64,000 nt of DNA from an uncultured Spirochaetota bacterium (GTDB taxonomy: Bacteria; Spirochaetota; Spirochaetia; SZUA-6; Fen-1364): assembly GCA_963734545.1 (NCBI GenBank), contig CAVTHO010000006.1, forward strand, positions 384,001 to 448,000, written 5' to 3'. A program made the translations under genes and the position numbers. The notes under the pieces are model-generated. The model had not been told where the DNA came from and did no database searches. It saw nothing but the letters and a program-made list of their open reading frames with translations. Positions 1 to 37,850 of this stretch are shown here, piece by piece (positions within the stretch are counted from its first letter, which is position 1; the number at the start of each line of letters is the position of its first letter).

Positions 1-2176
1 GCGGGGACTGGACCACCACCTTGTTCCGCGGCAGGTCGAGCAGCTCCGCCACGATAATCTGAATCTCAGAGGGGTGCTGCGTGGAGGAGTTGATGAATAT
101 AGTGCCGGACTCGCCCATCTCCGCCATGGCCGCGTGCGTCTCCAGGTAGAAATGCTCCTGGCTGCCGGAGAAGAACTCCCCTTCGAGCCGATGCGGAGAT
201 TCGGCCAGGGCCTTGTCGCAGTCTCCCCGCTTCAATACATGGGGATCCGTGTGGTAGCTGTTCTGGGAGACCGCCTCCTTGATGCCGAGGATCGGGGGCA
301 GCGGCTCGTAGTCCACTTCCACGAGCGCCGCTGCCGCGCGGCACTCCTTGACGGAATTGCCGACCACGAGCGCGATGAGCTGGCCGTGATACAGCACCTC
401 CTGGGAGGCGAGGAGCGGCTCGTCGTGCCGCGCGGTGCCCACGTTGTTGTGCCCGGGGATGTCTTCAGCGAGCAGGACCGCGACGACACCGGGAGCGCCC
501 CGCGCCTTGTCCGCGTCGCGCCGCGTGATGCGCGCCCGGGTCCGGGACGCGCAGACCGGCCAGGCTTCGAGCATGGGCCGGCGCTGGGACGTATCGTCCA
601 CGTACAGGGCGCCGCCCGTCACGTGCCCCCGGGCGCTCTCGTGCGCGAGCGCGCGTGAAGCGTCCGTCACGGGAAACTTTTCCCCGAGCGCAAAGTCCAG
701 CGCGCCGTCCTGTGCCGAGCTCTGCTCGCCGCTCACGAACTTTTCCCACAGGCTGACGATGAGCCCTTTCCGATACGCGGCGCTTCCCCGGGCGTCATCG
801 ATGGGCTGAAACTCGGCCTGGAGCGCCTTGCTCACCGCCTCCCGCGCGTCCTCGAGGCGCCGGCCTTCCGCCGCGGCCTCTGCCCGGCGGGCACGGTGCG
901 GCGTGAGCGCCACTCCGCCGTAGGCAATACGCGCCGCGCGCACTATGCCGCCTGCGTCCACGTCGGCCCTGAATGCGCCTGCCACGATGCTGATGTCCAG
1001 CTCGCGGCGCTTCGACACCTTGAGGAAGTCCACCTTCCGCGTGAGCCCCGAGGCAGGACCGGCGCGCGGAACCACGATTGCCAGGATTATTTCACCGGGC
1101 CGCAGCGCCGTCTTGCGATACCCCAGGAAGAAGTCCGCAAGGGGCAGCGTGCGCCGGGCCCTGGAGGTTCCGAGCACCAGCGTGGCATCCAGCGTGAGGA
1201 GCACCGGCGCGCTGTCTCCGATTGGAGATGCCGTGGCGATATTGCCGCCCATGGTCGCGCGATTGCGGATGCCGCGGGAGGCGAACACACGCAGCATCTT
1301 TGCCAGTGACGGGTATTCGGCCGCAACCGTCTCTTCCACCGCGGTGAGCGTGGCCGCGCTGCCGATGCGCCACGCGGAGTTGGTGCGCGTGATGCGCGTG
1401 AGCTCCGGCACGCCCTCGGTGGAGATGAGGAGCGGAAAGGAAGCGAGCTTTTTGTTGATGTCGACGCCGATCTCCGTGGCGCCTGCAACGAGACGCGCCT
1501 TCGGATGCTTTTCCAGCAGGGAGAAAAGCTCGGGCAGCGAGGTGGGGCGGAAGAACTGTTCCCCTTGCGCCGCATAGGAGAGCGCCCGCGCCGGCTCCAC
1601 CGGCGCGTCGAGCCGGCGTCTGAATGGATCCTCCACGCCGACGGAATTGTCCCTCTGCGCGAGCGCTCCCAGCGCGGCGTCCCGTATGGGCCGGTAGCCC
1701 GTGCAGCGGCAGAGGTTGCCGCTGAGCTGATCACTGAGCTGCCACGGGTCCCGACAGTCGTCCCGGTAGTATGCCTCGAACAGTGATACGACAAAGCCCG
1801 GCGTGCAGTACCCGCACTGGGAGCCGTACTGCTCCACCATGTGCGCCTGCACGGGGTGCAGCGTCTGCCCGGCAGCAAGACCTTCCACCGTCACGATCTC
1901 CCGGCCTGCGAACATGGGAAGCAGGGCGATGCAGCTGTTGAAGGCACGATAGGTCGGCGCGCCCGCGGCGTTCCGGTCCACGAGCGCCACGGTGCAGGCG
2001 CCGCAGTCCCCCTCCGCGCAGCCGCACTTGGTGCCGGTGTAGCCGTGTGTGCGCAGGTAGTCCAGCAGGGTGGTCGTCGGCGCCGCGTCCTGCACGAGAA
2101 CGGGCAGTCCGTTGATGATCATTGTGAAGCTGCCGGCGGCCGGGTGCGGTTTCACGTGAGGTTCCCTTTTCATCAT
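1..2176 (-). CDS. xdhA-xdhB: Xanthine dehydrogenase, single-chain fusion of XdhA (2x[2Fe-2S] + FAD) and XdhB (Mo-cofactor) domains; 3' end runs off the window
   Basis: Not in the ORF track because there is no stop inside the window. Manual translation from ATG 2176 (alternative starts GTG 2155, ATG 2122) gives GTKCGCAEGDCGACTV, GSQCGYCTPGF and GNLCRCTGYRPI (Fe-S motifs), then AGATE and IRNRATMGGN (FAD). It continues in frame into HESARGHVTGGALYVDD, QEHFYLET and STQHPSEIQ (XdhB). Confidence 0.9.
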   Translation of the reverse strand, partial: MMKREPHVKPHPAAGSFTMIINGLPVLVQDAAPTTTLLDYLRTHGYTGTKCGCAEGDCGACTVALVDRNAAGAPTYRAFNSCIALLPMFAGREIVTVEGLAAGQTLHPVQAHMVEQYGSQCGYCTPGFVVSLFEAYYRDDCRDPWQLSDQLSGNLCRCTGYRPIRDAALGALAQRDNSVGVEDPFRRRLDAPVEPARALSYAAQGEQFFRPTSLPELFSLLEKHPKARLVAGATEIGVDINKKLASFPLLISTEGVPELTRITRTNSAWRIGSAATLTAVEETVAAEYPSLAKMLRVFASRGIRNRATMGGNIATASPIGDSAPVLLTLDATLVLGTSRARRTLPLADFFLGYRKTALRPGEIILAIVVPRAGPASGLTRKVDFLKVSKRRELDISIVAGAFRADVDAGGIVRAARIAYGGVALTPHRARRAEAAAEGRRLEDAREAVSKALQAEFQPIDDARGSAAYRKGLIVSLWEKFVSGEQSSAQDGALDFALGEKFPVTDASRALAHESARGHVTGGALYVDDTSQRRPMLEAWPVCASRTRARITRRDADKARGAPGVVAVLLAEDIPGHNNVGTARHDEPLLASQEVLYHGQLIALVVGNSVKECRAAAALVEVDYEPLPPILGIKEAVSQNSYHTDPHVLKRGDCDKALAESPHRLEGEFFSGSQEHFYLETHAAMAEMGESGTIFINSSTQHPSEIQIIVAELLDLPRNKVVVQSP

Positions 2177-3045: not shown

Positions 3046-6000
3046 TTAATTGCCGAGCGCGGTCAGGCGCCGCTGGGCAAGCTCCCAGGTGCTGTTGGGC
3101 TCCCTGTTTCCGGGCTTCTCCACCTTCGCATATGCCTGCCGGGCCGACTGGATGAAGCCATACCCCTCGGCGATCCGGCCGAACACATACCAGTCCTCGT
3201 TTCTCGGCGTGGATTCCCCGCTCAGCTCCAGGCATTTCTGCATGAGCTTCCGCGCGTCCTCGTAGCGGCCGTTCTGCGCGTACAGCGTTGCCATTGTCTG
3301 GAGAATGGCCCGGTCCTGGGAGTTGGACATGGTGACGGCTCTTCGCGCGTATTCGAGGGCCTGATCGCTCAATGCGGGCTGGAAAAGGTCCAGCCAGGCA
3401 AGGCTGTTGTAGTCATAAGCGGAGAGACGGAGCCCGGGAGTCTGCAGCAGGCTCTGGATCTTTGCAGAATCACGTTTGGCGATGGAGAGGCTCAACAGCA
3501 TGCTCATGACGACGTCACGCTGGGCCGAGGCTTTGATCCGTTCGTTCAGGAGCATCTCCATGCGGTCCCAGTTGTGCGTCTTGTACAGGGCGTCGATGTA
3601 CACCGCGAAGTTCTCGTCCTTGCCGGGATCCAGCTCCACCAGCTCTCCGGCAGCGCTCAGCATGCCCGCCCAGTCCAGGGTGTTTCGCGAGCCCCCGATG
3701 ATCGCCGTCAGGAGATCGGTCCGGGCAGCTCCTTTCGTGGCGCTCACTCGTTTCCAGGCCGGCTCGATGTCCCCGTTCTGCCGGGCAAACATGGCAGAGA
3801 GAAAGTCCACCGCGGGCTGGATGTCGGCAGGACCGCGCGTCCCGGCGCCCGGCCAGAAATCCTTGAAGCCATCCAGGTCCTTGTCGTGCGCGTTCTCCAC
3901 GTCGGACCGTATCCAGTCCAGCCACGTTGCCGCGGATGCCCAGTCCTGCCGCGCACACAGGCCGCGAAGGGCAACCGGCACCGATGCCGGCACGCCGAAC
4001 AGGGCCGCTACCTTCAGTGCGCCGCCCTCCCTGACGATGAAGAAGGTATTGAGCGTCGCGTTCTGCGCAAGTGTGCTCCTCATCACCAGGTGGTACCCCG
4101 TGCTGTCCGTTCCCTTGATGTCGTACACGCAGTGGCTCAGGATGATGTCGATGAGGCTTTCCATGGTGGTGGCCTGGTTGCGGACCACATTTGCCAGGGA
4201 GGCCCATTCGGATTTCAGATTGAGACCCTGGCTCTTCTGCATGAGAATCTCATAGAGACCCGCAGTGAGCCCTGGTTTCAGCAGGGAGAAGTCCGCGCCG
4301 TCCGCGGCGACCAGGCCTCGATAGTAGAAGTTGGCGAGCGCCGTCGGATCTTTTGGCGCGCCGTTATCCAGCTCGAAGTGCCGTGTCGATGCCATGAGGT
4401 CGGCCTGATAGTCGAGGTTCACCGCGTTGGCGGATCCGCGCGCCGCCATCCGGTACAGCTCCGAGGATTCCGCGTATTTGCCGATGGTGGCAAGCAGCGC
4501 CGCCGCGCGCGCCAGGTAGTCCTGGCGCTTTTCCCGGGAGAGCTGCGGATTCATGGCCTTGACTCCGGCGCCGGTTCCTCCTGCCGCGCTGCGCGCGGCA
4601 AGCTGGTATGTTTCCCTGTCATCCGCATTCGCGAGACCGGCTGCCATGCTCTGCACATCGCTGAACCTGCCCAGGTACCAGAGATCGACCACGGGATTCA
4701 GGTCGAGATTGTGGTCCTTGAGAGAGTCCTTGACGAGGTCATATTGAGCAGCGGAAACCGCGAGGTCGGCCTTGTTTCCATAGCGTATTCCGTTCTTGTC
4801 GTATTCGAGAAGAATCGCGTAGTCGGCGCGGGCGTACCAGACGTCGGGCGCTAGCTCCAGCGATTTACGGTACGCGGCAAGGGCGGCCTCACGGTCATAC
4901 CCCAGCCCGAAGCGCTGGCCGATCCCGTCATGCTGCAGGGTCCAGGCAAGATTGGTCCAGGCTTCGCTGTCGGCGGGCGCGAGATCCACCGCGCGGCGCG
5001 CCGCGAAGGCGGCCTCGTCACCCAGCCCGGACTTCAGGAGCGCCCGGGAAAGCCTGATCTCGTGCATGGGCTTTGCCGGTTCCCGGGCTATCAGCTCGCG
5101 GAACTTCTTGAATGCGTTCAGATAATCGCCGGCCGCGTAGAGCTGCTCCGCCTCGTGGTCGAGGATGATCTTGACGGTGCCCAGCGCATCCCGATAGTCG
5201 ATGAGGGCTTTGCGCGTGGCGTCGAACTCCGAAGGGCCGAGGCGCGCCTTGGTGGTTTCGATGGTCATGCGCACGACGACCGTTCCATCCGGGAGCCTCT
5301 CGGCCCGGGATCGGTAGGAGACGGCGCCGAGGTCCTTCTGCACCGGGTCCGGCAGGCCGCGCGGGATGAATCCCGACGGGGGATGGATGCGGTTTTCCCA
5401 GTGCACGATGAACGTCATGTTCATCCGGTAATCCTGCCGGCGCGGCTGGGCCTTCTTGTCCAGGAGCACGTTGGGCAGCCAGCTGAACAGCTCATCGGTC
5501 TTGATCGCGACCTCGGCGTATTCGGCATAGGTCGCGCCGATGGGCGTGTCATTCACGCGAAGCGTCAGCGCGAACGGCGTATCCAGGTCGTGCGCGTCCG
5601 AGTATTCGAAGGATTCCAGCTTCTTCTGACCGTAGTAGCGCTCGGCATAGGATTCGAGGTCCTTCTTGATCTCTGCCGGGTCGCCAAAGGCGTGGGTGCT
5701 GCGTTGATAGAGATCCAGGCCGCCGCCGTACGTGGTCGTCTCCGTGACGCTGCAGTTGCCGCTATCTTGTAGAAAGTAGTCGTTGACCTGCGTCGTGTCC
5801 TGATATGCGGCAGGGTAGACCGGTGTCTTTATGAGGCCGGTGGCTTCCGGCCGGGCCGGCAGCGCCCAGCGTTCCTGGTCCCAGTAGGGCAGCCTTTCAT
5901 CCCTGCTGAAATCCGACGTGGGATCCAGCCAGAGCGGCTGCGGGCCGTCCACGTACACGATGGCATGATTGAAGATGTCCATGCCGGGCATGTCCGGGAG

Positions 6001-7101
6001 GATGTCCTCTTCCGAGTCGTTCCAGAGCAGGGCGATACTGGCCCTGTACCCGGCCTGGCGGAGAAAAGAGACGAGCAGGGTCGCCTTGTCCTTGCAGTCT
6101 CCATAGCCGCGATCCAGTATTTCCCGGGGCGTGTAGGGCACGATGGAATTCGAGCCCAGCTCGAGACCCACGTAGCGGACGCGCGTGTTGATCCAGCGCA
6201 TGAGCCCGATGGAGGTCTTCACCGGATTACCGGCAACGACCGCTTCTTTCGGGACATCCACTCTCTGCGCGCTGATTTTCTGGTCGACCAGCCGCGAGTA
6301 TCCGGCGGCAAGCGCGTTCCATGAAGGGGCAGTCGTGAAGCACACGTACGGCCCGGAGGGAACGTCCCGGGGGAACCACTTCTCGGTCTTGTCGGCCGGG
6401 AATTGCCGGGTACGCAGGTATTCCCACCGTGTGGTTCCCGCCGCAACGCTGATCTGGAAAGAGGGAACGTCCTGCCCCAGGCTTTTCATCTTCACCTTGA
6501 CGGAGCCGGGGGTCTCGATGACCAGCCGGTTGACGAGCGTCGGGATACTGGAATAGAAGTTCCAGCTCCGGATGAATCCGCCGCCCTCCAGTATCGGCCG
6601 TGAGATGTTCCGTACCTCTTCCTCGACGACGGAGCCGATGTGCACCTGGGGAAAGGGGGCCTCGAGGGTCTTTCTGTCGGAATAGATATTGTCGCTGTCT
6701 CCGGTGGATTTCCCTTCCGCCAGGGTTTTTGGATCCAGGTACCAATCCCTGCCGTCGGCGTTTATCACCCGCACACGGATGTCCGGCCTGTCCTGATGCC
6801 AGGGGCTCCAGGAAACCTGGACGCCCCCCCAGCCTTTCAGCCCGTCCTCGGTGAGGATCTGGTACACGAGCTGGGTGGTCTGCTCGAGGGTGCCGTTCTC
6901 CCTGAAGCGGAATCGCCCCTGCCTGTAGAGGATGACGACATCGTTTTCACCCGGGTAGCTGCTGTTCTTTGCGGCCGCAATGACTTCCGCCGCATTCACC
7001 TGGAACAATCCCTTGCTCCAGAGGGCGTCCGCCGGTTCCTGGGCGCCGAGGCAGACCGCGGCCAGAAAAAAGAGGCACGTGGCAATCGGGATTTTCACCA
7101 T
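3046..7101 (-). CDS. Exported DUF3857 + transglutaminase-like + TPR protein (~1350 aa)
   Basis: Signal peptide from ATG 7101 (MVKIPIATCLFFLAAVCLGAQE). Transglutaminase-like triad GDCKDKA / FNHAIV / WLDPT. Helical TPR-like repeats in the C-terminal half. Confidence 0.85.
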   Translation of the reverse strand: MVKIPIATCLFFLAAVCLGAQEPADALWSKGLFQVNAAEVIAAAKNSSYPGENDVVILYRQGRFRFRENGTLEQTTQLVYQILTEDGLKGWGGVQVSWSPWHQDRPDIRVRVINADGRDWYLDPKTLAEGKSTGDSDNIYSDRKTLEAPFPQVHIGSVVEEEVRNISRPILEGGGFIRSWNFYSSIPTLVNRLVIETPGSVKVKMKSLGQDVPSFQISVAAGTTRWEYLRTRQFPADKTEKWFPRDVPSGPYVCFTTAPSWNALAAGYSRLVDQKISAQRVDVPKEAVVAGNPVKTSIGLMRWINTRVRYVGLELGSNSIVPYTPREILDRGYGDCKDKATLLVSFLRQAGYRASIALLWNDSEEDILPDMPGMDIFNHAIVYVDGPQPLWLDPTSDFSRDERLPYWDQERWALPARPEATGLIKTPVYPAAYQDTTQVNDYFLQDSGNCSVTETTTYGGGLDLYQRSTHAFGDPAEIKKDLESYAERYYGQKKLESFEYSDAHDLDTPFALTLRVNDTPIGATYAEYAEVAIKTDELFSWLPNVLLDKKAQPRRQDYRMNMTFIVHWENRIHPPSGFIPRGLPDPVQKDLGAVSYRSRAERLPDGTVVVRMTIETTKARLGPSEFDATRKALIDYRDALGTVKIILDHEAEQLYAAGDYLNAFKKFRELIAREPAKPMHEIRLSRALLKSGLGDEAAFAARRAVDLAPADSEAWTNLAWTLQHDGIGQRFGLGYDREAALAAYRKSLELAPDVWYARADYAILLEYDKNGIRYGNKADLAVSAAQYDLVKDSLKDHNLDLNPVVDLWYLGRFSDVQSMAAGLANADDRETYQLAARSAAGGTGAGVKAMNPQLSREKRQDYLARAAALLATIGKYAESSELYRMAARGSANAVNLDYQADLMASTRHFELDNGAPKDPTALANFYYRGLVAADGADFSLLKPGLTAGLYEILMQKSQGLNLKSEWASLANVVRNQATTMESLIDIILSHCVYDIKGTDSTGYHLVMRSTLAQNATLNTFFIVREGGALKVAALFGVPASVPVALRGLCARQDWASAATWLDWIRSDVENAHDKDLDGFKDFWPGAGTRGPADIQPAVDFLSAMFARQNGDIEPAWKRVSATKGAARTDLLTAIIGGSRNTLDWAGMLSAAGELVELDPGKDENFAVYIDALYKTHNWDRMEMLLNERIKASAQRDVVMSMLLSLSIAKRDSAKIQSLLQTPGLRLSAYDYNSLAWLDLFQPALSDQALEYARRAVTMSNSQDRAILQTMATLYAQNGRYEDARKLMQKCLELSGESTPRNEDWYVFGRIAEGYGFIQSARQAYAKVEKPGNREPNSTWELAQRRLTALGN

Positions 7102-7138
7102 GGATCCATTGTAGCACGGGGGCAAAATCGCGCAAATA

Positions 7139-8506
7139 TCAGCGGGATGAATCCGGCCGCAGAAATCTTCCCGACGGCTCCCCCACCACTGATCCGTCCC
7201 GGGCAACCGTGCGTCCGCGTACCAGCGTGCGCCGGACCGCCCCCTTCAGCGTGCGGCCGATATACGGGCTCAGGGCGTGCCGGTACAGGAGCTCGCTGTC
7301 CTGCAGAACGGACGCGCGTGACAGATCCACGAGCGCGAGGTCGGCGTCGGCGCCGACACGGATTCCGCCCTTGCCTGGCAGCCTGAACCGGTCCGCCACG
7401 TTCGAGGAGAGCAGCCCGGCGATCAGGGACGGAGGCAGGCCGAGTGTCAGCAGGACCCGGAGCGTCGTCTGGATCCCGCTGATCCCGCCCCAGGCTGCGA
7501 AAAAGTCCGGGGACGCGCCGCCGTTCGCGGTGGATTTGTTTTTCAGCTCCGGCGACGAGGGGGAATGATCCGAGCCGATCGTATCCACCCTGCCCGCGGC
7601 CACTTCGGCAAGGAGTTTTTCGCGCTCGTCGCTGCTGCGAAGCGGAGGAGAGCATTTCGCCGCCGCGCCCAGCCGCTCGACGTCTTCCTCTGACAGGAGC
7701 AGGTAGTGGGGGCAGGTCTCACAGGTCGCATCGCACTGTCCCGTGTCCGCGGCCTGCCTCACGAGCTCCACTCCGCGCGACGAGCTGGTGTGCACGACGT
7801 GCAGCGCGCACCCCGTCTCCTCCGCGAAGAGAAGGGCCCGGGATATGGCCTCGGCTTCAGCGATGACCGGTCGGGAGTCGAGATAGTCCCGCACGGACGT
7901 GCGGCCTTCCGACCGCGCGATCCCGGCGCGCGCGCGTGTCATTCCCTCGTTCTCCGCGTGCACCGCCACCGGCAGTCCCAGGCGCGCCGCGATCCGCATG
8001 CCCCGGTAAAGAGACTCGTCGTCACAGGCGCGGAAATCCTGGATGCCGCTGGAGGACATGAACGCCTTGAACCCGACCACACCGCACTCCGCCAGGGCTT
8101 CGAGCTGGTCGAGGTTGTCGGGGGTCAGCCCTCCCCACAGGGCAAAATCCGTTCGTGACGCGGCCCGGCAGGCGGCGAGCTTCAGCTCGAAGGAGGGAGC
8201 ATCGAGGGTGGGCGGCGAGGAGTTGAGCGGCATGTCGATGAAGCAGGTGCCGCCGCCTGCCGCGAGCGCCGCGGACCCTGTCGCGATGCCCTCCCAGTCC
8301 GTGCGGCCGGGCTCATTGAAATGGACATGGGCGTCGATCACGCCGGGGAAAGCGTGCAGACCGCGCGCGTCCATCGTCTCCTTCGCGCCTTCTGAGATCT
8401 CGGGGGCGAGGGCGGCGATTCTTCCCTCCCGTATGCCGATCCAGAGAGGAACCGGGCCCGAGGCGCCCACGACGAGCGCATCGCGGATCACGAGGTCGAG
8501 CGCCAC
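7139..8506 (-). CDS. allB: Allantoinase (amidohydrolase superfamily)
   Basis: PGVIDAHVHFNEPGRTDWEG, DMPLNSSP, GFKAF, HAEN, ETCPHYL, SDHSP, WGGISG. Start is GTG 8506; the ORF-track extension to 8899 overlaps uraH. Confidence 0.93.
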   Translation of the reverse strand: MALDLVIRDALVVGASGPVPLWIGIREGRIAALAPEISEGAKETMDARGLHAFPGVIDAHVHFNEPGRTDWEGIATGSAALAAGGGTCFIDMPLNSSPPTLDAPSFELKLAACRAASRTDFALWGGLTPDNLDQLEALAECGVVGFKAFMSSSGIQDFRACDDESLYRGMRIAARLGLPVAVHAENEGMTRARAGIARSEGRTSVRDYLDSRPVIAEAEAISRALLFAEETGCALHVVHTSSSRGVELVRQAADTGQCDATCETCPHYLLLSEEDVERLGAAAKCSPPLRSSDEREKLLAEVAAGRVDTIGSDHSPSSPELKNKSTANGGASPDFFAAWGGISGIQTTLRVLLTLGLPPSLIAGLLSSNVADRFRLPGKGGIRVGADADLALVDLSRASVLQDSELLYRHALSPYIGRTLKGAVRRTLVRGRTVARDGSVVGEPSGRFLRPDSSR

Positions 8507-8510
8507 TGCT

Positions 8511-8861
8511 TCAGCTTCCTCTATAGGTCGCGTACGACCAGGGAGAGACCAGCAGGGGGACGTGGTATTTCCCTCCCGGCTCGCTGACGATGAAGACAAC
8601 CGGCACGAGATCCAGGAACCTTCCCGCGTCAGGGTGACCGCGGCGCATGAAATAGGCCCCCACGTGGAACACGAGCTGGTAGGTCCCCGGGGACAGCGCG
8701 GGCCCTTCCAGCAGCGGGGCGTCCGTGCGTCCGTCCGCGTTCGCGACCAGCGTCTTGAGCAGGACCGCGGCCTCCGCGGTGACGCGCTCCAGGTCGATGC
8801 GCATGCCGGCCGCCGGTATGCCGCTCGCCGTGTCCAGGACATGCGTGCTGAGTCTGCCCAT
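8511..8861 (-). CDS. uraH: 5-hydroxyisourate hydrolase (transthyretin-like)
   Basis: N-terminal [17 protein letters not shown] and the C-terminal YRGS signature. Confidence 0.97.
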
Positions 8862-8864
8862 TGC

Positions 8865-9710
8865 TCACTCCCTTGCGACGGTCCCTTTGATGAGGCCATA
8901 AGGCTCGCTCGTGGCCGTGAAGATCTCGTTCTCGTTCGTCATCCCGAATGGCTGGAGGTTGACCAGGAGCCGATGCTGGTTGGGCATCGTGAAGCTGACG
9001 GAGCTTATCTCGGGAATACGCGCGAGCAGCGCTTCCCCCATTGCGTACAGGGTCTGCTGGACGCTCAGGCTGTCATGCGTGGCGAATGCCTCCAGGATCG
9101 TCTCTCGCGCCGTTTCGAAAACCGCGTTGAAGTCTGCCGGGCGCGCGCCATAGTCCCACGTGGCGTCGACGATGGTGGCGAAGATCCGGTCGGTGGTCTC
9201 CGGCAGCGTCGTGTACCTGTCCTTCAGGAACCCGGCGAATCGCGATCTCGTCGTCTTGATCACATCCAGTCCGGCAAGCCCGGCCCGGATGAGCGTGGCG
9301 CTTCCGCGCTTTCCGCGCACAAAGGCCGTGCGGACTGCGGATCCTTCTTTCTGGAACGCGTGCGCGTGCGGCGTGCCGTCCACCTCGATGCGCGACCACA
9401 GGGTCTGCTCCATGGAGATCTCGACCCAGTCCACGTGGCCGAAGCTTTCCAGGAAGTGGGACGCGAGGATCCGGCCGAACTCCTCCGCGGAATCGAAATC
9501 CGTGGCCTTTGCCAGCGCATACACCGTGTTCTTCATGGTGTCCGTCGGAATGCACGAAGAATTGTCGCCGTCGGTGTAAATTCGTTCGAAGGCGCCGCCC
9601 AGCGTGATCTGGACCGTGAGCTCGAAGAGGCTGTGCGTCTCCCCCTCGCGGACCACCTTGGTCAACCTCACCCTGCTCTTGCCGTAGCTGTTCTCCGTGA
9701 GCCGCGCCAC
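8865..9710 (-). CDS. pucL: Factor-independent urate oxidase (uricase)
   Basis: YGKSRVRL, DNS..IPTDTMKNTV, SVQQTLY, MPNQH and EPYGLI uricase motifs. Confidence 0.96.
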   Translation of the reverse strand: MARLTENSYGKSRVRLTKVVREGETHSLFELTVQITLGGAFERIYTDGDNSSCIPTDTMKNTVYALAKATDFDSAEEFGRILASHFLESFGHVDWVEISMEQTLWSRIEVDGTPHAHAFQKEGSAVRTAFVRGKRGSATLIRAGLAGLDVIKTTRSRFAGFLKDRYTTLPETTDRIFATIVDATWDYGARPADFNAVFETARETILEAFATHDSLSVQQTLYAMGEALLARIPEISSVSFTMPNQHRLLVNLQPFGMTNENEIFTATSEPYGLIKGTVARE

Positions 9711-9713
9711 CGC

Positions 9714-10235
9714 TCAGGTCTCCGCTACCGCATCCCGCAGCCGCAGCCGGGCAATCTTCCCGATCTCTGCAAGGGCCGTGGCGATTTCCTGCTCCCGCGT
9801 GTGAGCCAGGCGGGCGGGGAATGCCGCGAGGATCGCCTCTTTCCTGTTTTCCCGCGCGCAGATGACAAACGGCATTTCGAACTTCTCCCTGTACTCCCGG
9901 TTGTAGCGATCGAACAGATCGATGTCGATGTCGGAGAGGCTGCCCAGGCCGGCGGCTGCCTGCTCCGCTGCGGAATCCCGGGAGAGTTTTCCCTCCCGGG
10001 CCAGCCGGCCCACCAGGTCCGGGTGCGCGGAGATGAGCGCAAGCTGCTCCTCCCGTGTCGCCTTCCGCACGGTGGCCACAAGCTCCTCGTGGAGGGCCGC
10101 CAGCGTCGGAAAGGGCCGGCGCGGCCACGTCCGCGCGGCGATCCAGGGCGAGTGCTCGAACAGCGGCCCGCAGACAGCCACGAAACCGGCCTCGTCCCGG
10201 GCATTGAGGTCCGCCAGGGACGCTTTCACCTGCAT
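9714..10235 (-). CDS. uraD: OHCU decarboxylase
   Basis: FEHSPWIA, AHPDL, EQAAAGL, YREKFEMPFVIC, EIGKIARLRL. ATG at 10235 follows GGAGG. Confidence 0.95.
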   Translation of the reverse strand: MQVKASLADLNARDEAGFVAVCGPLFEHSPWIAARTWPRRPFPTLAALHEELVATVRKATREEQLALISAHPDLVGRLAREGKLSRDSAAEQAAAGLGSLSDIDIDLFDRYNREYREKFEMPFVICARENRKEAILAAFPARLAHTREQEIATALAEIGKIARLRLRDAVAET

Positions 10236-11467
10236 ACCGCCTCCGCGACGATGCGCGCCGCGCACGCAATGTCGTCGATCCGGCTGAACTCGCCCGGGTT
10301 ATGGCTTATGCCGCCGCGGCTGGCCACGAAGAGCATGGCGGCAGGGAGCAGGGGAGCCAGTATCGCGGTATCGTGAAGGGCGCCGCTCGCTGTTTCCGGC
10401 AGCTCCAGCTCGAGACGCCAGGCAGCCTCCTGCAGGCGCTCGCACACTCCGGGGTCGAGCGGGACAGCCGGCAGGTCTTCCGTGCACGAGAGCTCGAGCG
10501 TGAGCCCCCGTGAGCGCGCGATTTCCTGCACGAGCTTCCGCACCTGCAGGTCGCCGTGTGCCAGTCCCTCGTTCGATCTTGCGCGAAAGTCGATGGTGAA
10601 GGCGACCCGGCCGGGGATCACGTTCACCGCGTTGGGCTGCACGTCCAGCCGGCCCACGGTGACAACCGTGTGCCCTTCGGTCTTGTCCTGGGCCCGGCCC
10701 AGGCCTTCCAGGGCAGTCACCACTTGCGCGGCCCCTGCCAGCGCGTCACGCCTGTCCACCATGGCGGTGGCACCCGCGTGATTCGCCTCCCCGGTGAGCG
10801 CGCACGAGTACTGGCGGCGCCCGGCGATGGCCGTCACCACTGCCACCGGTATTCCGGCGTTCCAGAGCGCGGGCCCCTGCTCCACGTGAGTCTCGATCAG
10901 CCCGTGGTAGGCAGCCGGATCGAGACGCTCCGCGTCCAGCCTCTTCGGGTCCACGCCGTGCGCCGCGCCTGCCGTGAGGTAGTCCCTGCCCTCGCGGTTG
11001 CGAAGCGTGCGGAGCTGATCGGCATTGGTCAGGCCGGCCCACGCGCGGCTGCCCAGCATGCCGAGATCGAACGTGGTCCCTTCTTCCTCTGCAAAAACGA
11101 TCAGCTCCATCGGCGCGTCCGGCGCGGCGCGGAGGATCTCCAGCGCCACCACCACTCCCGTCACTCCGTCGAACCTGCCGCCGGTGGGCACCGAGTCCAC
11201 GTGAGACCCGCACAGCCATGCCTTCTCCTGCCATCCGAGCCCCGCGGGCCGCGCATGCAGGTTGCCTGCCGCGTCGATGCGCACGACGCATCCGGCTTTC
11301 TGCGCTTCCTCCGCGACGTAGTCCCGGGCCCGGCGCCACGAGGGCGAGAATGTCGGACGGCTGAAACCGACCTGCGGGTCTGCCTCGGAGAATGCGGCGA
11401 TCTGCTCGATGTCCCGGGCCAGCCGATGGCCCGCCACCTGGATGCCGCTCACCCGGGAGGGCTTCAC
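10226..11467 (-). CDS. allC: Allantoate amidohydrolase-type M20 Zn/Mn hydrolase
   Basis: GSHVDSVPTGGRFDG, EEEG, ETHVEQG, NHAG, NVIPG, SGALHD, GISHNP. GTG 11467 overlaps the upstream stop (GTGA). The specific substrate is inferred from context. Confidence 0.8.
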   Translation of the reverse strand: MKPSRVSGIQVAGHRLARDIEQIAAFSEADPQVGFSRPTFSPSWRRARDYVAEEAQKAGCVVRIDAAGNLHARPAGLGWQEKAWLCGSHVDSVPTGGRFDGVTGVVVALEILRAAPDAPMELIVFAEEEGTTFDLGMLGSRAWAGLTNADQLRTLRNREGRDYLTAGAAHGVDPKRLDAERLDPAAYHGLIETHVEQGPALWNAGIPVAVVTAIAGRRQYSCALTGEANHAGATAMVDRRDALAGAAQVVTALEGLGRAQDKTEGHTVVTVGRLDVQPNAVNVIPGRVAFTIDFRARSNEGLAHGDLQVRKLVQEIARSRGLTLELSCTEDLPAVPLDPGVCERLQEAAWRLELELPETASGALHDTAILAPLLPAAMLFVASRGGISHNPGEFSRIDDIACAARIVAEAVCR

Positions 11468-12454
11468 TTTCCGAAATCCTTCCGCCACGCCGCCCCTGTC
11501 TTTTCGAACGCGCTCTCGGCGGCCGTGCGCCGCAGCCGGTGAAGCTGGGGGGTGCCCAGCTCCCACTCCTGCATCCAGTCGCGCGCAAAGGCCCCCTGCT
11601 CCGTTTCCTTGAAAATCTGGCGGACAGCATCCTCATTGATCACGCGCGGCCCGCGCGTGCGCACGGCGAACTCGCAGGTACGGCTGCAGCGGGTAGTGAG
11701 GTAGTTCTCGACTCCGTTTTCGTCCATCACGTCCAGCACGCTTCTGATGGAGCGCACTGCTTTTGCATATGCAAAGCTCGGCGGATAGCCGTTGTCCACC
11801 ATCACCTGGAAGCAGAGCCGCATGAGCTGGATTGCCCCGCCGTAGAGGATCTGCTCCTCGAAGTTGTCCCCCTCTGTTTCGTGCTGGAAGGAAAGCTCCA
11901 CCACGCCTGCCCTCGTGGAGCCCACTGCCTTGGCAATGGCAAGAGCGATCTCTCTGGCGCTGCCCGGTGGCGTCGTGCTCGACGCTCACGCAGCCGTAGA
12001 CCCCTTCCCCCTTCTTGTACTTTTCCCGCACGAGCGCGCCGGGGGCATTGGGGACGAACAACACCGTGTTGACGGTCTCCGGCGGACGGATGGCGCCGTA
12101 GAGCACGTTGAAGCCGTGACAGAAGCAGAGCGTCTGGCCCGGCCGCAGGTGCGGGGCGATCTCTTTCCTGTAGACGGACGGCTGCGCGGGATCGGCCAGC
12201 TCGATCAGGAGAATGTCCCCTTTTTTTGTCGCCTCCGAGACGCTCATCACGGGAAACCCGTCCGCCTGCGCCTGGCCGCGGGAAGGACTCTCCTCCGCCG
12301 GCCGGGACCCGACGATCACGGTGCAGCCGCTGTCCCGGGCGTTCGCGGCCTGCGCTTTGCCCTGGATGCCGTACCCGATGACGGCGATTGTCCGGCCCTT
12401 GAGAATCGACATGTCCACGTCGGCATCGCGGTAGATCTTCTCGGTGTTTTCCAT
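11464..12454 (-). CDS. Divergent class I ketol-acid reductoisomerase (IlvC-like) fold oxidoreductase; one +1 frameshift near 11964
   Basis: N-terminal half IYRDADVD..IAVIGYGIQG..RDSG..HGFN and C-terminal half RAGV..ETEGDNFEEQ..GAFARDWM. Removing one G from ACCGGGC (11963-11965) joins the two ORFs as DATGSAREIALAIAKAVGSTRAGV. Confidence 0.85.
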
Positions 12455-12463
12455 TCGTTTACC

Positions 12464-13218
12464 TCACAGGGCGATCTCTCGATTGACGTTCTTATAATAG
12501 ATGTATCTGGACGCGAACAGGGCCCGTGGCATAGTAGCTCTGCGGACAGAAGGGGCCCATCCAGATGAAGTCGGTGGCTTCGACCTCCATCCAGGTGTCA
12601 TCGAGGAAGTACGTGCCTTTGCCTTGCAGCACGTACAACCCGTGCTCCATGACGTGCGTCTCCGTGATTGGCAGGCTGTGTCCCACGTCGAATGTGAAGA
12701 TATTCATGGCCATGTCGAATGCGTTGTCATCCGGGATAAGTACCTGCAGGAGCGCGCCTGGGTCTTCGTAGTACACCTGGCCTTTGGCATTCTTCTCGTT
12801 TCCCACCACCGCGGAGAACATGGGGAACGCCCGTTGCCGGCTCGTAACGCTTGCGCAGCATCAGCAGAGAAGTCTGCGCGCTGGCAGCGGCGCTGAAACT
12901 TTTGTCCGGTGGAATGAGCGCGTAGCCGCCGCTCACCAGGGCATGGCTCTTCCCGTCGATGGTGAGGCCCAGGGCACCGGAGAGCACGTAAATGAAGAAC
13001 TCGATCTGTCCGTCCGCAGGATGCGCTCCGGCCTGGCCAGGCGCCAGGTCCAGCAGGTATTCCGCGAACCCCGCCCCCAGCGCCGGCCCGGCGAGCACGC
13101 GTACCTGCGCCTGCGGCCACTCGGGCAGCCGCGAGTAGGGGATCCCCTCGAGGGGAAGAAGGGCATAGCGGGGTTTCACGCGCGTCCGGCTGTGCAGGAG
13201 CTGACTCTGAGTTCTCAT
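12464..13218 (-). CDS. allE: (S)-ureidoglycine aminohydrolase (bicupin); two apparent +1 frameshifts (~12823, ~12516)
   Basis: EFFIYVLSG in the first cupin. DMAMNIFTF, ETHVMEHGLYVLQGKG and FIWMGPFCPQ in the second. The canonical C-terminus RYIYYKNVNREIAL* lies in a shifted frame ending at 12464. Confidence 0.9.
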
Positions 13219-13311
13219 CGAGGACGAATATACTCATGGCAGAGTCGAATCGGGCAAGCGAACGATGGATGTTCGGCGGGGGCGGTCTACCGCGCGCGAG
13301 TCGAGCCGGCG

Positions 13312-14474
13312 CTACCGCGCTGAAATGTAGCTTATCGGAGCCCGCTCGATCTTCTCCACCGGCAGCACGTCCACCAGCTCGTACTTCCGCGTGCCCAGTC
13401 CCAGCTTCTCCCCGTACTCCACCACCAGGTAGGGGTCCTTGTAGGGGCCGTGCAGCCAGCGGAACGGGTGCCCCTCGCGCGTGTGGACTTCCATCGAGGT
13501 GGGGATGTTCTCCTCGATCAGGCGCAGTTCGCCGATTGCGTCCAGCACGGCCTGCTCCACGGCAACGATATCGTCCGAGCCGAAGATTCCCGCGTCCGGC
13601 AGGATGGGCATGCTGGTGAACCCGAAGCAGTCGCAGACCGGCGTCATCTGGTTGGCAAGGATGATGTGCACGGCCTTGCCCGGCGCAAAGGTGCCCAGAG
13701 AGAGGCTCGTGCTGATTGCCAGGCCTCCTGGAAGGCATGGAAGTTCACCTTGTCGATCTTCAGGCTGCCGGGGGGCGCCACTTTCAGGCAGCGCCCGCAC
13801 TGGTTGCACTCCTCGGGGTGCAGGTGAAGCTCCCGGGGGTTGTCCTTGTCCTCCACGAGCGCCGCGTGCGGACAGGAGGCGAGGACGCTTTTTCTGGCGG
13901 CCTCGTCGGGGCACTTGTCGGCGAACCAGTAGCGATCGAACTGCATTGCGTCGTGCATGGCGCTGCGCGTAGGACCGGCCATGCAGCCCAGGGCCAGGTT
14001 CTTGAACACCCCGCCGTAGCCGCAGCTCGGATGCCCCTTTGCATGCGCCAGGTTGACCAGGAATGTTGCGTCCTGGATCAGTCCGGCGACCTGCCACTTC
14101 TTGATGTTCTTGAAGGGGCGCTCATGCTCGTAGAAATACTTGTCATCCGGCCCGGCCGCGGCGTACACGGGGCAGCCCAGGGTCTCAGATGAGTAGCCGC
14201 GCTCCTCGGCGCCCTTGGCGTCCCAGGTCACATCGGCGATGTACGGCCGGCCGCCGCCGTCCTTGATGGCCTGCACGACCTTGCGCACGAAGACCGGGTG
14301 CACGGTCGAATAGCCGATCTTGTTTCCCGTGTGCATCTTGATCACCACAGTCTCGTCCTTGACGCGCTCGCGCAGCTTGAGGCGCTCGAGGATCAGATCG
14401 AGCTTGGCCGGCAGGGTTTCCCTGGCCTCGAGCCGGGCCTGACGGGGGGAGCCGAAATACACGGTGCTGGACAT
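13312..14474 (-). CDS. DUF362-family Fe-S protein with 4Fe-4S ferredoxin insert; frameshift near 13720
   Basis: IKMHTG, AHAKGHPSCGYGGVFKNLALGC, CP...CNQCGRC, and PVCDC...GIFGSDDIVAVEQA in the downstream frame. ATG at 14474 follows GGAGG. Confidence 0.8.
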
Positions 14475-14574
14475 TTGCAGACCTCCCATTGGCATAGGGC
14501 AGTAGCTTATCATAGATGCGTTCTCGTGATAATGGGCGAATTCTGGTCGCCCAAACATCTTTGCGAGTTGTTTT

Positions 14575-14637
14575 ATAACGTTATTTTCTAATAATCTATT
14601 CTAACATGTGGACAAATCAAGATAACGCGTATATAAT
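14575..14637 (+). promoter_or_regulatory. Sigma70-type promoter of the sugar operon with candidate LacI-like operator
   Basis: TGGACA (14609-14614), 17-nt spacer, TATAAT (14632-14637). Perfect palindrome ATAACGTTAT at 14575-14584 and a related GATAACGCGTAT in the spacer. The region is AT-rich and divergent intergenic. Confidence 0.65.
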
Positions 14638-14669
14638 TCAAGGCCGATTGATAGGAAGGGAGTAGGCAC

Positions 14670-15713
14670 ATGATTGCAATTGCAGTTATTGCGCCCGGAC
14701 ACGTCGAACCGGTCGATATCCCGAAACCCAAGCCTGCGCCGTACGAAGCTTTGATAAAAAACAAGGCAGCCTACATCTGCAACGCCACCGACAGGAAGCT
14801 CGTGGCTGGTCATTTTCCCGGCATCGGAATCGAGAAGTATCCCCTCCTGCTCGGTCATGAGAGCGTCGGCGTCGTGGAAGAGGTGGGCTCCCGGGTGAAG
14901 AGCTTCAAGCCCGGTGACCGGGTGATCGGAGGGCTTCTCCTTTCGCCGACCAGCCCGCGCTTTTCTTCCGGCTGGGGCGGGAATTGCGAGTACGTGATTG
15001 CCACGGATCACGCGGCCATGCTCGCCGACGGCGTGGCGGACAAGGCGCACGGCTGGGACGAAATCTTCCAGATCATGAAAAAGCTTCCCGATGACATCCC
15101 GCTGGAGGCAGCCGCGCTCCTGTGCACGTGGCGCGAGGTGTACGCGGGCTTCAGCGACTTCCAGTTGAAGAAGGGCGACGACATACTCATTTTCGGCGCC
15201 GGGCCGGTCGGGCTCAGCTTCTGCCGCATGGCGAAGCTCCTCGGCCTGGGATGGGTCGGAGTGGTGGACCCCCTTCCCCAGAAGCGGGATCGGGCAAAGG
15301 CAATCGGGGCGGATGAGACATTCGCTCCTGATTCGGCCGAGCTGGCGGACCTGACCCGTCGCCGGGGCGCTCCGCTGGACGCGGTCATCGACGCGGTGGG
15401 AAGCGAACGCATCATCAACGCCGGCCTGCCGCTCATCAGGATGGCCGGCTCGCTGTGCGTGTACGGGGTGGTGGGGAGCGCGCAGATCACCGTTGCCAAG
15501 GACACGGGGCCCTACAACTTCAACCTGTTCATGCACCAGTGGCCGACACGGCCGGCGGAGGCGGCGGCACAGGAGCCGCTGATCGAGTGGATCAGGGCGG
15601 GCAAGCTCTCCCACAAGGATTTCCTGACAGCGGAGTACCCGGTGCGGGAGGCTGCGAAGGCCCTGCATGCAACCGAAGAGCCGGACGCGATCAAGACCCT
15701 GCTTCGTTTCTGA
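14670..15713 (+). CDS. Zinc-binding (MDR-family) sugar/alcohol dehydrogenase
   Basis: ICNATD, LLGHESVG, GDRV, Rossmann GAGPVG. No 4-Cys structural-zinc lobe is visible. RBS AGGAAGGGAG. Confidence 0.85.
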   Translation: MIAIAVIAPGHVEPVDIPKPKPAPYEALIKNKAAYICNATDRKLVAGHFPGIGIEKYPLLLGHESVGVVEEVGSRVKSFKPGDRVIGGLLLSPTSPRFSSGWGGNCEYVIATDHAAMLADGVADKAHGWDEIFQIMKKLPDDIPLEAAALLCTWREVYAGFSDFQLKKGDDILIFGAGPVGLSFCRMAKLLGLGWVGVVDPLPQKRDRAKAIGADETFAPDSAELADLTRRRGAPLDAVIDAVGSERIINAGLPLIRMAGSLCVYGVVGSAQITVAKDTGPYNFNLFMHQWPTRPAEAAAQEPLIEWIRAGKLSHKDFLTAEYPVREAAKALHATEEPDAIKTLLRF

Positions 15714-15727
15714 GGAGCCGTAGTGAC

Positions 15728-17252
15728 ATGAACCGCTACATACTCGCGCACGATCTGGGGACATCGGGGAACAAGGCGACCCTTTTCACGACCGAGGGGA
15801 AGCTGGTGGGAAGCGTCACTGTTCCGTATGACACGCACTACTTCAACACCAACTGGGCCGAGCAGGAGCCCGAGGATTGGTGGAAAGCCGTGTGCTCCTC
15901 CACGCAATCCCTCGTGCGGGACGTGGATGCGCGCGAGATCGCCGTCATTGCATTCAGCGGCCAGATGATGGGCTGCCTCTGCGTGGACAGGGACGGACGG
16001 GCCCTGCGGCCCGCCATCCTGTACAGCGACCAGCGCGCGGTGAAGGAATGCGATTCGATCCTCCGGCAGATCGACGCACAAGAGTTCTACAAGACGACCG
16101 GCCATCGCGCCAGCGCCTCCTACTCGGTGGAGAAGCTCATGTGGGTGAAGGACCACGAGCCGCAGGTATATGCAAAGACATTCAAGATGCTCCACGCCAA
16201 GGACTACCTGAACTTCCGCCTCACCGGGGTCATGGCCACGGAGTATTCCGACGCGTCAGGCACGAACGTGCTCGACCTGAACAGCCTGCGCTGGTCGGAA
16301 AAAATCGTGCGCATCACCGGCATCGACGGCGAGAAGCTGCCCCCGCTCAAGGCATCCACCGACGTGGTCGGCACGCTCACGTCGGCCGCCGCCAGGGCGC
16401 TGGGGCTGCCCGCCGGAATTCCCGTGGTCGCCGGAGGAGGGGACGGGGTCTGCGCGGGGGTGGGCGTCGGATCGGTGAAACCGGGGATCACGTACAACTA
16501 CCTGGGTTCCTCATCGTGGATCGCGACCACGACAAAACAGCCGATTTACGACGAGCAAGATGCGCACCTTTGTCTGGGCGCATGCCGTTCCGGGGTACGT
16601 GCATCCCTGCGGCACCATGCAGACGGCGGGGGGCGCGTACGCGTGGCTGAAGAACGAGATCTGCACGATGGAAAAGGCAGCCGCGTCGGAGAGCGGCGGA
16701 AATCCCTACGAGCTCATCAACAGGGAGATAGAGAAATCTCCACCAGGAGCCAACGGCATCATTTTCCTTCCGTACCTGCTGGGGGAGCGCACGCCGCGAT
16801 GGAATCCGGATGCCAAGGGCGCCCTGATGGGCCTCACCCTGGAACATACGCGGGCGGACGTCCTGCGGGCCGTCATGGAAGGCGTGACGGTGAACCTGAG
16901 CATCATCCTGGACATTTTCCGGGAACAGATCCCCATCAGAGAGATCACCGTGATCGGCGGCGGAGCCAAGGGTGACGTGTGGCGAAGGATCATGGCGGAT
17001 GTCTACCAGGCGGATATCCTGCGGCCCAACTACCTCGAGGAAGCCACCTCCATGGGCGCCGCGATCATCGGCGGTGTCGGATGCGGGGTTTTCAAGGACT
17101 TCGACGTGGCAGACAGATTCATCACGATCACCGACCGGACGCGCCCGGACGCCGGCCTGCAGTCCGTCTACCAGGCAACAAAAGACCTGCTGAATGACAG
17201 CTACGATGCACTCGCCCCCCTCTTTCCGAGATACGGGAAGAGGACACGATAA
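15728..17252 (+). CDS. FGGY-family carbohydrate kinase (xylulokinase-like); +1 frameshift near 16558
   Basis: HDLGTSGNKA, FSGQMMG, SDASGT, GGGDG, then FLPYLLGERTP and IGGGAK in the second frame. Confidence 0.88.
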
Positions 17253-37363: not shown

Positions 37364-37660
37364 TCAGCCAAAGAATTGCTCCCATTCCAGGCTTCTGGCC
37401 ATGGCCAGGCCGACCTTCGATGGATCAGACGGCACCTGCTCCGACCGTATCTCGTCTCTGCGGCGCCGTATCCGCTCCAGCAGGATCAGGTCGTCAATCG
37501 AAACGATTGCCGCGATCTTTCTGCCTCGGCGCGTAATCAGCACCGGATTGCTTCCGAATGCCGCGCGATTGACAATCTGCGAGAGGCCGCGGCGAAGCTC
37601 CTCTGTGCTCACGACGGGTGGAGTACTGGGACGGATAAAGTCACCGAGCTGGGCTGCCAT
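37364..37660 (-). CDS. Phd/YefM-family antitoxin, no adjacent toxin
   Basis: STEELRRGLSQIVNRA..PVLITRRGRKIAAIVSIDD, the Phd fold signature. Confidence 0.75.
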   Translation of the reverse strand: MAAQLGDFIRPSTPPVVSTEELRRGLSQIVNRAAFGSNPVLITRRGRKIAAIVSIDDLILLERIRRRRDEIRSEQVPSDPSKVGLAMARSLEWEQFFG

Positions 37661-37850
37661 ATGACAAGGTACAGCCGGAAACTGCCGCGCACTTGCGCGA
37701 GGGAGGGGCGGAACGACTCACGCGAACCTCTGAAAACGTACAATACCACGGGTTCGCGCTCACATGATTCGCACACGCCGCGGCCGGTTCATGCCTGCGG
37801 CGCTGTCAACCCACTTGTCCTCTCGTTTGGAGAGCCCGTACAATCAGCCA

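Follow-up and report, generated by a model that had tools for sequence, protein, structure and literature searches.

The window analysed here is a stretch of 64,000 nucleotides (nt) from the genome assembly of an uncultured Spirochaetota bacterium (GCA_963734545.1, hereafter G000; contig CAVTHO010000006.1, C6:384001-448000). Our subject is a gene within it that encodes a protein with the fold of ketol-acid reductoisomerase (KARI, IlvC) and that resides in a cluster of purine-degradation genes (Table 1). The oxidative purine pathway leading from urate to ureidoglycolate is textbook biochemistry, and the cluster in the window amounts to a complete oxidative route from xanthine to (S)-ureidoglycolate. 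On the same strand and 3' of the KARI-like gene follow the genes for an M20-family amidohydrolase, OHCU decarboxylase, uricase, 5-hydroxyisourate (HIU) hydrolase and allantoinase; beyond the allantoinase lie a large TPR/transglutaminase-like open reading frame (ORF), an HD-domain gene and then the xanthine dehydrogenase (XDH)-type enzyme. The KARI-like gene is thus placed between the genes for the last two steps of the route, M20 and AllE. The best named model for the cluster M20 is the allantoate amidohydrolase NF006771, at 350 bits and under that model's cut-off of 399; in the PDB its matches are an N-carbamoyl-L-amino-acid hydrolase (226 bits), E. coli AllC (199 bits) and a ureidoglycolate hydrolase (176 bits).

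Table 1 The KARI-like gene, its frameshift and the oxidative purine genes around it (positions are those of the window)
Feature	Position	Strand	Evidence and remarks
KARI-fold paralogue	11464..12454	minus	Rossmann N-domain and knotted C-domain; 329 amino acids (aa) when read through; one frameshift
Frameshift site	11962..11970		One extra base in the window relative to relatives; frames switch between VEHDATG and SAREIALAI
AllE, (S)-ureidoglycine aminohydrolase (bicupin)	12464..13218	minus	TIGR03214, 3.2e-27 (N part) and 4.8e-41 (C part)
M20 hydantoinase/carbamoylase-family amidohydrolase	10226..11467	minus	TIGR01879, 321 bits (cut-off 204); allantoate amidohydrolase by context
OHCU decarboxylase	9714..10265	minus	PF09349, 3.8e-47
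Uricase	8865..9710	minus	PF01014, 6.7e-62
HIU hydrolase, transthyretin family	8511..8861	minus	PF00576, 5.5e-34
Allantoinase	7139..8503	minus	TIGR03178, 517 bits (cut-off 358); listed ORF extends to 8899, family match from residue 133
XDH-type molybdoenzyme (2Fe-2S, FAD and MoCo domains)	2..2176	minus	Continues beyond the window edge

The KARI-like gene is spread over two frames. The N-terminal frame, starting with the ATG at 12454, matches PF07991 (KARI_N, NADPH-binding) at 7.8e-50, and the C-terminal frame, which ends with the TGA at 11466-11464, matches PF01450 (KARI_C) at 3.4e-29. A four-letter step at the frame junction gives the read-through product P0003 of 329 aa, which is 93% identical to P0004, an intact database protein of the same length. 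The AllE stop codon (TGA, 12466-12464) leaves a 9-nt gap before the KARI-like ATG, and the GTG start of the M20 gene (11467-11465) overlaps the KARI-like stop as GTGA. This placement between allE and an allC-type M20 had been described in the original prediction, a reading of the letters alone, and both junctions are borne out in the sequence; the motifs quoted there (GYGIQG, HGF, ETEGDNFEEQ, VPNAPG, LYGG and AYAKAVRS) were all found, and the gene does contain a single frameshift, two frames joined by one +1 shift. That prediction was also right in placing no ilvB or ilvD gene in the window, as genome-wide searches locate them on contigs C8, C7, C3 and C5.

The frameshift bears on whether the gene should be regarded as functional at all. 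Orthologues read VEHDATGNAREIALAI unbroken across the site, and the 120 relatives listed in the protein search described below are full-length ORFs of 326-334 aa, none of them truncated. Logan contigs from four public runs (X1-X4) were aligned on 11300-13300, and all four contigs that cross the KARI-like site (from runs X2, X3 and X4) omit one letter, either 11966 or 11969. Being 90-99% alike, these contigs may represent other strains; they demonstrate an intact gene in related populations, and the source reads of the window are not thereby settled. No public sequencing run matched as much as half of the words sampled from the stretch. AllE in the window spans three frames (two frameshifts); one X1 contig omits a single base at 12821, and one X1 contig omits a single base at 12826. 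Among short-read relatives the closest is L005, where all three genes are unbroken (AllE with 250 aa, the KARI-like protein with 329 aa, and M20) and the same 9-nt gap separates AllE from the KARI-like gene. G000, an assembly of 10 contigs that is 89% complete, is rich in single-base frameshifts, which affect AllE, a DUF362 gene, the canonical ilvC, an Ldh_2 gene and a second hydantoinase-family M20 gene, the last of which carries three in-frame TGA codons. The places named for this breakage are 12464-13218 and 13312-14600 of the window and G000:C3:56945-57882, and gene calls from this assembly will come out fragmented. That the KARI-like copy is a true pseudogene with a real frameshift accords with the given sequence, with its +1 shift and the two shifts in the neighbouring AllE, but is very improbable: broken genes are scattered throughout G000 and include the housekeeping ilvC, the copy is without further lesions, each half being about 93% identical to P0004, and the contigs of three other runs, with the above proviso about strains, lack the extra base. 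Because of the many broken genes in G000, the full-length relatives and the contigs that are one base shorter, we consider the frameshift most probably an assembly error (indel), and the KARI-like gene is consequently taken to be functional.

The protein belongs to a well-delimited family. A word-indexed protein search retrieved 1396 proteins at E ≤ 1e-10; the 120 matches listed are 76-93% identical and all apparently family members, and the sources that name them use ‘ketol-acid reductoisomerase’. In a 50%-identity library, the nearest outsider is P0124 at 50% identity, followed by KARI-type representatives at 33-46%. We computed a maximum-likelihood tree of 133 rows comprising 25 family members (window copy included), P0124, 99 representatives (those outside 305-360 aa were omitted) and eight ilvC proteins from the same genomes. 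The family forms a single clade (SH-aLRT 100) with a stem of 0.42 and very short internal branches, P0124 is its sister (support 99), and the eight ilvC proteins from the same genomes are placed elsewhere, apart from the clade. The original prediction had proposed such a tree with class I KARIs once the frameshift was repaired, and the repaired copy indeed falls within the clade and is distinct from canonical ilvC. P0124 shares the Asn after the metal-binding Asp, the Lys at the position of Glu226 and an ARTRGPR motif with the family and differs by VPEAPG and AYLKVVNG; a metagenome scan for its genomic context gave only one weak and unrelated locus (L104). A search for fused forms among longer proteins (577-2000 aa) gave none at E ≤ 1e-60. 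Long ORFs holding the gene in L046 and L065 were considered as fusions and rejected, being upstream read-through in a frame other than that of AllE. A phylum-wide profile, in which P0004 was searched against 401 genomes at E ≤ 1e-120, gave no matches, not even the split copy of G000; it carries no weight, since the threshold was too strict and the sample was without a known positive.

The KARI-like protein coexists with another KARI in all 50 genomes examined, namely G000 and the genomes behind 49 of the 80 loci described below. This further gene is canonical in 44 of them (325-468 bits on TIGR00465), split in G000 and of a long form of 515-755 aa in five. The KARI-like copies themselves, represented by 49 intact orthologues, reach 269-300 bits on TIGR00465 and thereby exceed its cut-off of 226, which accounts for the name that the databases give them; on NF004017 (cut-off 336) the halves of the split window copy score 186 and 133 bits. 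As anticipated in the original prediction, this is a KARI-fold enzyme other than the housekeeping IlvC, a conclusion well supported by its separate clade and by the second KARI in 50 of 50 genomes.

The structural model and the alignment agree on a KARI scaffold with a remodelled active site. The AlphaFold2 model of P0004 has a pLDDT of 95.9 and TM-scores of 0.92-0.94 to class I KARI structures; sequence identity to solved KARIs is 34-44% and to sequence representatives 36-46%. Retained features are the GxGxxG motif, the loop Arg, HGF, the Asp/Glu pair of ETExD..EQ and the serine of SxT (the substrate-carboxylate Ser), and the NAD(P) site is strictly conserved in the family. D196 and E200 of P0004, both nearly invariant in the alignment, align with Asp190 and Glu194 of SaKARI. 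In the available excerpt of the SaKARI source, Asp190 and Glu194 bind two Mg ions and Glu230 ligates Mg(II) (PMC13753588).

The replacements, in SaKARI numbering by alignment offset, are Lys130 to Asn, Glu226 to Lys, Glu230 to Ser, Leu191 to Asn and Cys199 to Tyr. At the level of motifs APKGPG becomes VPNAPG, LCGG becomes LYGG, AYFExxHE becomes AYAK[AS][IV]RS (with Lys, Ser and an adjacent Arg) and the surroundings of SxTAEYG become SRTCEFA; there is also one residue fewer after EEQ than in class I KARI. We take the Lys of APKGPG (Lys130) to be catalytic in KARI, and Glu226 presumably plays a second-site role there. The active-site changes noted in the original prediction turn out to be near-invariant signatures of the 120 listed members: VPNAPG, ETEGDN[FY]EEQ, ILYGG and AYAK[AS][IV]RS co-occur in 106 of them, with the other 14 missing one pattern each, and SRTCEFA is likewise found in 106 and VPNAPG in 119. 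Comparing alignment columns of these 120 with those of 99 other KARI-type representatives (at least 95% in the family and at most 5% outside) yields 32 family-specific positions, among them N136, N197, E199, Y204, A230, K231, R258 and A263. N136 is present in 99% of the family, as against K in 58% and R in 17% of the other representatives, and K231 in 100%, as against Glu in 80%. Judged by these alignments and the published ligand roles, the family has retained the shared Asp/Glu metal pair and the carboxylate-binding Ser and has lost the second-site glutamates.

The genomic context is conserved far beyond the window. Scanning one genome per species yielded 198 stretches that encode a relative, with a MAG of Planctomicrobium piriforme among the matches listed, and the best 80 loci (74-100% identity) were kept: 46 from Planctomycetota, 27 from Spirochaetota, six from Verrucomicrobiota and one unplaced. 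Neighbours were counted by tblastn with the window's own proteins. In 67 of the 69 loci whose flank reaches 900 bp or more (all but L043 and L055), AllE is encoded on the same strand no more than 300 bp upstream; an M20 follows at most 700 bp downstream in 70 of the 71 loci with 1400 bp or more (all but L046); and both flank the gene in 58 of 61 loci. Where at least 5 kb were available on each side (34 loci), OHCU decarboxylase was found in 34, uricase in 33 and allantoinase in 32; the neighbourhood also repeatedly includes HIU hydrolase, adenine deaminase, XdhC, an amidohydrolase and XDH subunits. Homologues detached from purine genes had been named in the original prediction as the observation that would speak against it, and this is clearly not what the loci of the three phyla display; the neighbourhood survey proposed there finds the linkage to allE and allC fixed, and at curated thresholds a recognised AllA or AllD was not found in the 50 genomes. 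That the KARI-like protein belongs to the ureide pathway is therefore well supported, and among the recurring members of the cluster it alone is without an assigned step.

Some observations on the loci stand apart from this argument. Across L004-L083, the KARI-like protein is conserved at 74-100% identity, AllE at 42-93%, M20 at 50-90% and uricase at 44-90%; together with the short branches in the tree, the high conservation points to unusually strong constraint, a recent spread of the operon, or both. The variable downstream genes of L037, L083, L033 and L053 (encoding an ABC transporter, AhpC, an FMN-dependent dehydrogenase, BtpA and a symporter) include none that recurs. Directly upstream of AllE in the window, on the minus strand, lie a gene for a DUF362 protein with a 4Fe-4S motif (13312-14600) and one for a 387-aa protein with no Pfam or NCBIfam match (14601-15764); by tblastn their recurrence is confined to the closest relatives, the DUF362 protein in L004 and L005 and the 387-aa protein in L004. 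A 1386-aa ORF (3046-7206, minus strand) with DUF3857, TPR and transglutaminase-like matches is inserted between the allantoinase gene and the XDH and HD-domain genes.

What else could process ureidoglycolate in these organisms? The original prediction had stated that no AllA, AllD or ureidoglycolate amidohydrolase is recognisable. Within the window this holds, and the AllA-family and Ldh_2-family matches of G000 fall outside it; for the genome as a whole, the statement needs qualification, as G000 carries an Ldh_2-family gene some 25 kb ahead of the window and is one of the 23 of 50 genomes with a second hydantoinase-family M20 (27 genomes have a single copy, 22 have two and one has three). 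The AllA family is represented by matches of just 27-51 bits in 10 of the 50 genomes, none of them in the cluster; of two that were tested, the top match of G032 scores 42 bits against NCBIfam cut-offs of 160-275, and one from G000 matched no family. Ldh_2 proteins occur in 35 of the 50 genomes. In a sample of eight, one from each of eight genomes, no score on the AllD equivalog exceeded 237 bits (cut-off 496), and one sampled protein passes the broad ‘malate/lactate/ureidoglycolate dehydrogenase’ model (341 bits versus 336). Allantoicase was found in none of the 50, a result that carries no weight as the control genomes were also without a match.

The same genomes were searched for ways of using the products. 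Urease alpha is above cut-off in five of 50, and urea carboxylase in none, with generic biotin-carboxylase parts only and one fragmented, fuller match in G014. Glyoxylate carboligase (Gcl) is above cut-off in none, a near miss being G027 with 659 bits versus 711, and malate synthase is present in two. Since Gcl is above cut-off in none of the 50 genomes, a role of the KARI-like protein as tartronate-semialdehyde or hydroxypyruvate reductase of the glycerate pathway was rejected.

We infer the substrate, direction, cofactor and product of the enzyme from features that can be read directly, namely its fold, its paralogy, the residue changes, the operon position and the missing alternatives at curated thresholds. 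The operon position, combined with the lack of any other conserved candidate, suggests that the substrate is ureidoglycolate or its immediate product. We tentatively favour, as a plausible candidate function, an NAD(P)-dependent and non-isomerising (S)-ureidoglycolate dehydrogenase that would convert (S)-ureidoglycolate to oxalurate. In this proposal, a class I KARI fold would have been neofunctionalised as an oxidoreductase dedicated to the oxidative purine/ureide pathway. The alkyl-migration machinery would have been lost, with the Lys of APKGPG replaced by Asn and Glu226/Glu230 by Lys/Ser with an Arg beside them. Because the second-site Glu pair and the Lys are gone while the Asp/Glu pair is kept, one metal site would be left, at which a 2-hydroxy or 2-oxo acid could be bound over the nicotinamide. 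AllE, encoded 9 nt upstream, yields (S)-ureidoglycolate, which the KARI-like enzyme would oxidise to oxalurate with NAD(P)+ as a non-homologous stand-in for AllD where AllA and AllD are missing; a ureido carbonyl at the former position of the second metal would be accommodated by the new Lys, Arg, Asn and Tyr residues.

Several considerations argue for oxidation. What the protein has kept corresponds to what is needed for binding a 2-hydroxy acid to a single metal above the nicotinamide. C2 of (S)-ureidoglycolate would be arranged like that of (2R)-2,3-dihydroxyisovalerate, the KARI product, with N in place of C3, a likeness that we derive from Cahn-Ingold-Prelog priorities. Oxalurate is an N-acyl oxamate, and KARI has been crystallised with a hydroxyoxamate inhibitor (entry title of 6bul). 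A KARI fold that oxidises a C2 hydroxyl in catabolism is known from ApnO. Finally, oxidation avoids glyoxylate in organisms that are seemingly unable to assimilate it. Full-text literature searches (subscription journals and supplementary files not covered) turned up no link between a KARI-type protein and ureidoglycolate, oxalurate or allantoin. A complex prediction of the KARI-like protein with AllE scored 0.00 in two runs for which controls were not folded.

Other functions have to be weighed against this proposal. An ordinary second KARI isozyme that merely travels with the purine operon is scarcely credible: its class I fold, its TIGR00465 scores above the cut-off and the name used by the sources would all be as expected, but nearly all members have lost the catalytic Lys and both second-site Glu residues to replacements, every genome examined possesses a canonical KARI as well, the gene does not lie in an ilv context, and in all three phyla it keeps its place between AllE and M20. 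An NAD(P)H-dependent reductase of glyoxylate, or of small 2-oxo acids, that turns toxic glyoxylate into glycolate is a more substantial alternative, albeit an unlikely one. Ureidoglycolate would in that case be cleaved by spontaneous decay, by a bifunctional M20 or by the second M20 acting as ureidoglycolate amidohydrolase. The scheme draws on the scarcity of the usual glyoxylate sinks, Gcl and malate synthase, on the established ability of the KARI reductase half-reaction to take 2-oxo acids, on the loop Arg and Ser residues, which fit NADPH, and on the second hydantoinase-family M20 in 23 genomes. It is at odds with the 27 genomes that have a single M20, where ureidoglycolate would have to become glyoxylate without a conserved enzyme; a pocket for a two-carbon acid has no obvious need for N136, N197, Y204, K231, R234 and R258, and glycolate is a dead end unless it is re-oxidised to glyoxylate. 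The gene might also encode a reductive ureidoglycolate lyase, in which the metal-bound C2 alkoxide collapses to a carbonyl as urea leaves, and the glyoxylate, still bound, is reduced to glycolate by NAD(P)H. A single enzyme would then account for the lack of a lyase as well as for that of glyoxylate sinks; its C2 chemistry, from OH to C=O and back to OH, would resemble that of KARI, and the strict conservation of the NAD(P) site is in keeping with it. We nonetheless judge it improbable: the residues lost are precisely those of the first KARI step (Lys130, Glu226 and Glu230), the urea would be unusable in most holders of the gene, given the counts for urease and urea carboxylase, and the reaction costs reductant and gains neither carbon nor extra nitrogen. 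If it were nevertheless correct, at a long shot, a one-metal KARI scaffold would carry out a reaction that lacks a current EC entry (C2 alkoxide collapse, departure of urea and hydride transfer), and aerobic purine catabolism in Planctomycetota, Verrucomicrobiota and Spirochaetota would have a terminal branch that has so far escaped recognition.

The interpretation in the original prediction, a ureidoglycolate dehydrogenase or glyoxylate reductase in place of AllD, is supported in part. The dehydrogenase, the glyoxylate reductase and the lyase-reductase are not separated by these computations, and a number of points count against the first of them. The loop Arg and an S-x-S-R motif suggest NADP(H), which we take to be commoner for reductases. 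A consistent consumer of oxalurate was not seen in the genomes searched: the AllG family (a subunit of oxamic transcarbamylase, OXTCase) occurs in just 14 of the 50, all via spirochaete-titled loci, and was not found in G000. In the only AllG neighbourhood opened, that of G025, genes of malonyl transferase and methylmalonyl-CoA decarboxylase type were present and no carbamate kinase was seen. The M20 of the cluster could be bifunctional and leave glyoxylate as the substrate of the KARI-like enzyme, and the second M20 of 23 genomes could serve as a ureidoglycolate amidohydrolase. Finally, 49 of the 50 genomes are metagenome-assembled genomes (MAGs) or records without completeness figures, and G000 is 89% complete, so that absences are soft evidence; the genomes other than G000 were picked for their longer contigs.

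Two gene sets touch on oxalurate and uric acid from other directions. In G025 (L105, G025:C1:2794000-2810000), FdrA/AllG-family genes lie beside genes for a FabD/MdcH-like malonyl transferase, a carboxyltransferase of the methylmalonyl-CoA decarboxylase alpha type and a Na+-decarboxylase beta subunit, and this AllFGH-like set may serve something other than oxalurate. At a distance of 15-30 kb from the KARI-like gene, the window itself harbours another set of purine-related genes (26878-28083, 29896-31512, 37376-41470, 41470-42669 and 42681-44555). Its members are a YgeY-type M20 (478 bits, cut-off 321), an amidohydrolase resembling SsnA/8-oxoguanine deaminase, an XdhD-like molybdoenzyme, the knotted carbamoyltransferase YgeW (672 bits, cut-off 453) and an AFOR-like protein. 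The available excerpts of two preprints assign these families to the reductive uric-acid pathway of anaerobes (10.1101/2025.05.19.654654, 10.1101/2025.04.24.650524), and one organism may thus carry the oxidative and the reductive uric-acid routes together. YgeW was considered as an oxalurate enzyme and is not used as support, because it is a member of this separate reductive set.

The known enzymes for the step after ureidoglycolate were not found in the three phyla, and the KARI-like gene is the sole conserved gene of the operon without a role; an open step of the pathway thereby becomes testable with one recombinant protein. The database name ketol-acid reductoisomerase is probably wrong for this family, a misnaming that distorts metabolic reconstructions of MAGs from wetlands, peat and lakes. 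What is new here is probably a neofunctionalised KARI subfamily of the uric-acid/allantoin operon in three phyla that provides the missing terminal step of the pathway. Should the favoured dehydrogenase function hold true, a two-metal isomeroreductase would have been reduced to a one-metal redox enzyme, with Lys/Ser and an adjacent Arg at the positions of the second-site Glu residues.

How does the family compare with characterised systems? With class I KARI (IlvC, EC 1.1.1.86), it has in common the fold, the length, the Rossmann motif, HGF, the Asp/Glu metal pair and the carboxylate Ser; it differs in forming a separate clade, in always coexisting with a canonical KARI of the same genome and in residing in a ureide operon. 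AllD (Ldh_2, TIGR03175) is the proposed functional analogue, which would share with the KARI-like protein the oxidation of (S)-ureidoglycolate to oxalurate; in the excerpts available, AllD acts at the end of the AllC/AllE branch (PMC12535856, PMC11326118). The two are not homologous, the KARI-like protein matching KARI_N and KARI_C and neither PF02615 nor TIGR03175. ApnO, the D-apionate oxidoisomerase (EC 1.1.1.421), is described in the available excerpt of its source as having a KARI-like fold and oxidising the C2 hydroxyl of a 2-hydroxy acid in catabolism; only the metal residues of site I are common to it and KARI, and its second metal site has been rebuilt with His ligands (PMC13753588). 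The original prediction had named it as a tree relative, yet at about 15% identity to KARI, as given in that excerpt (PMC13753588), ApnO is an analogue rather than a tree neighbour; compared by this description, the KARI-like family is by contrast a close offshoot of KARI whose site II has apparently been lost. The cyclopropanol synthase BurG, which appears at ranks 49-50 of the fold search (TM 0.91, 33% identity), is likewise derived from KARI and recruited to a new pathway. According to the same excerpt, BurG keeps most KARI active-site residues and employs Glu232 as a base (PMC13753588), whereas the equivalent Glu has been replaced in the family described here.

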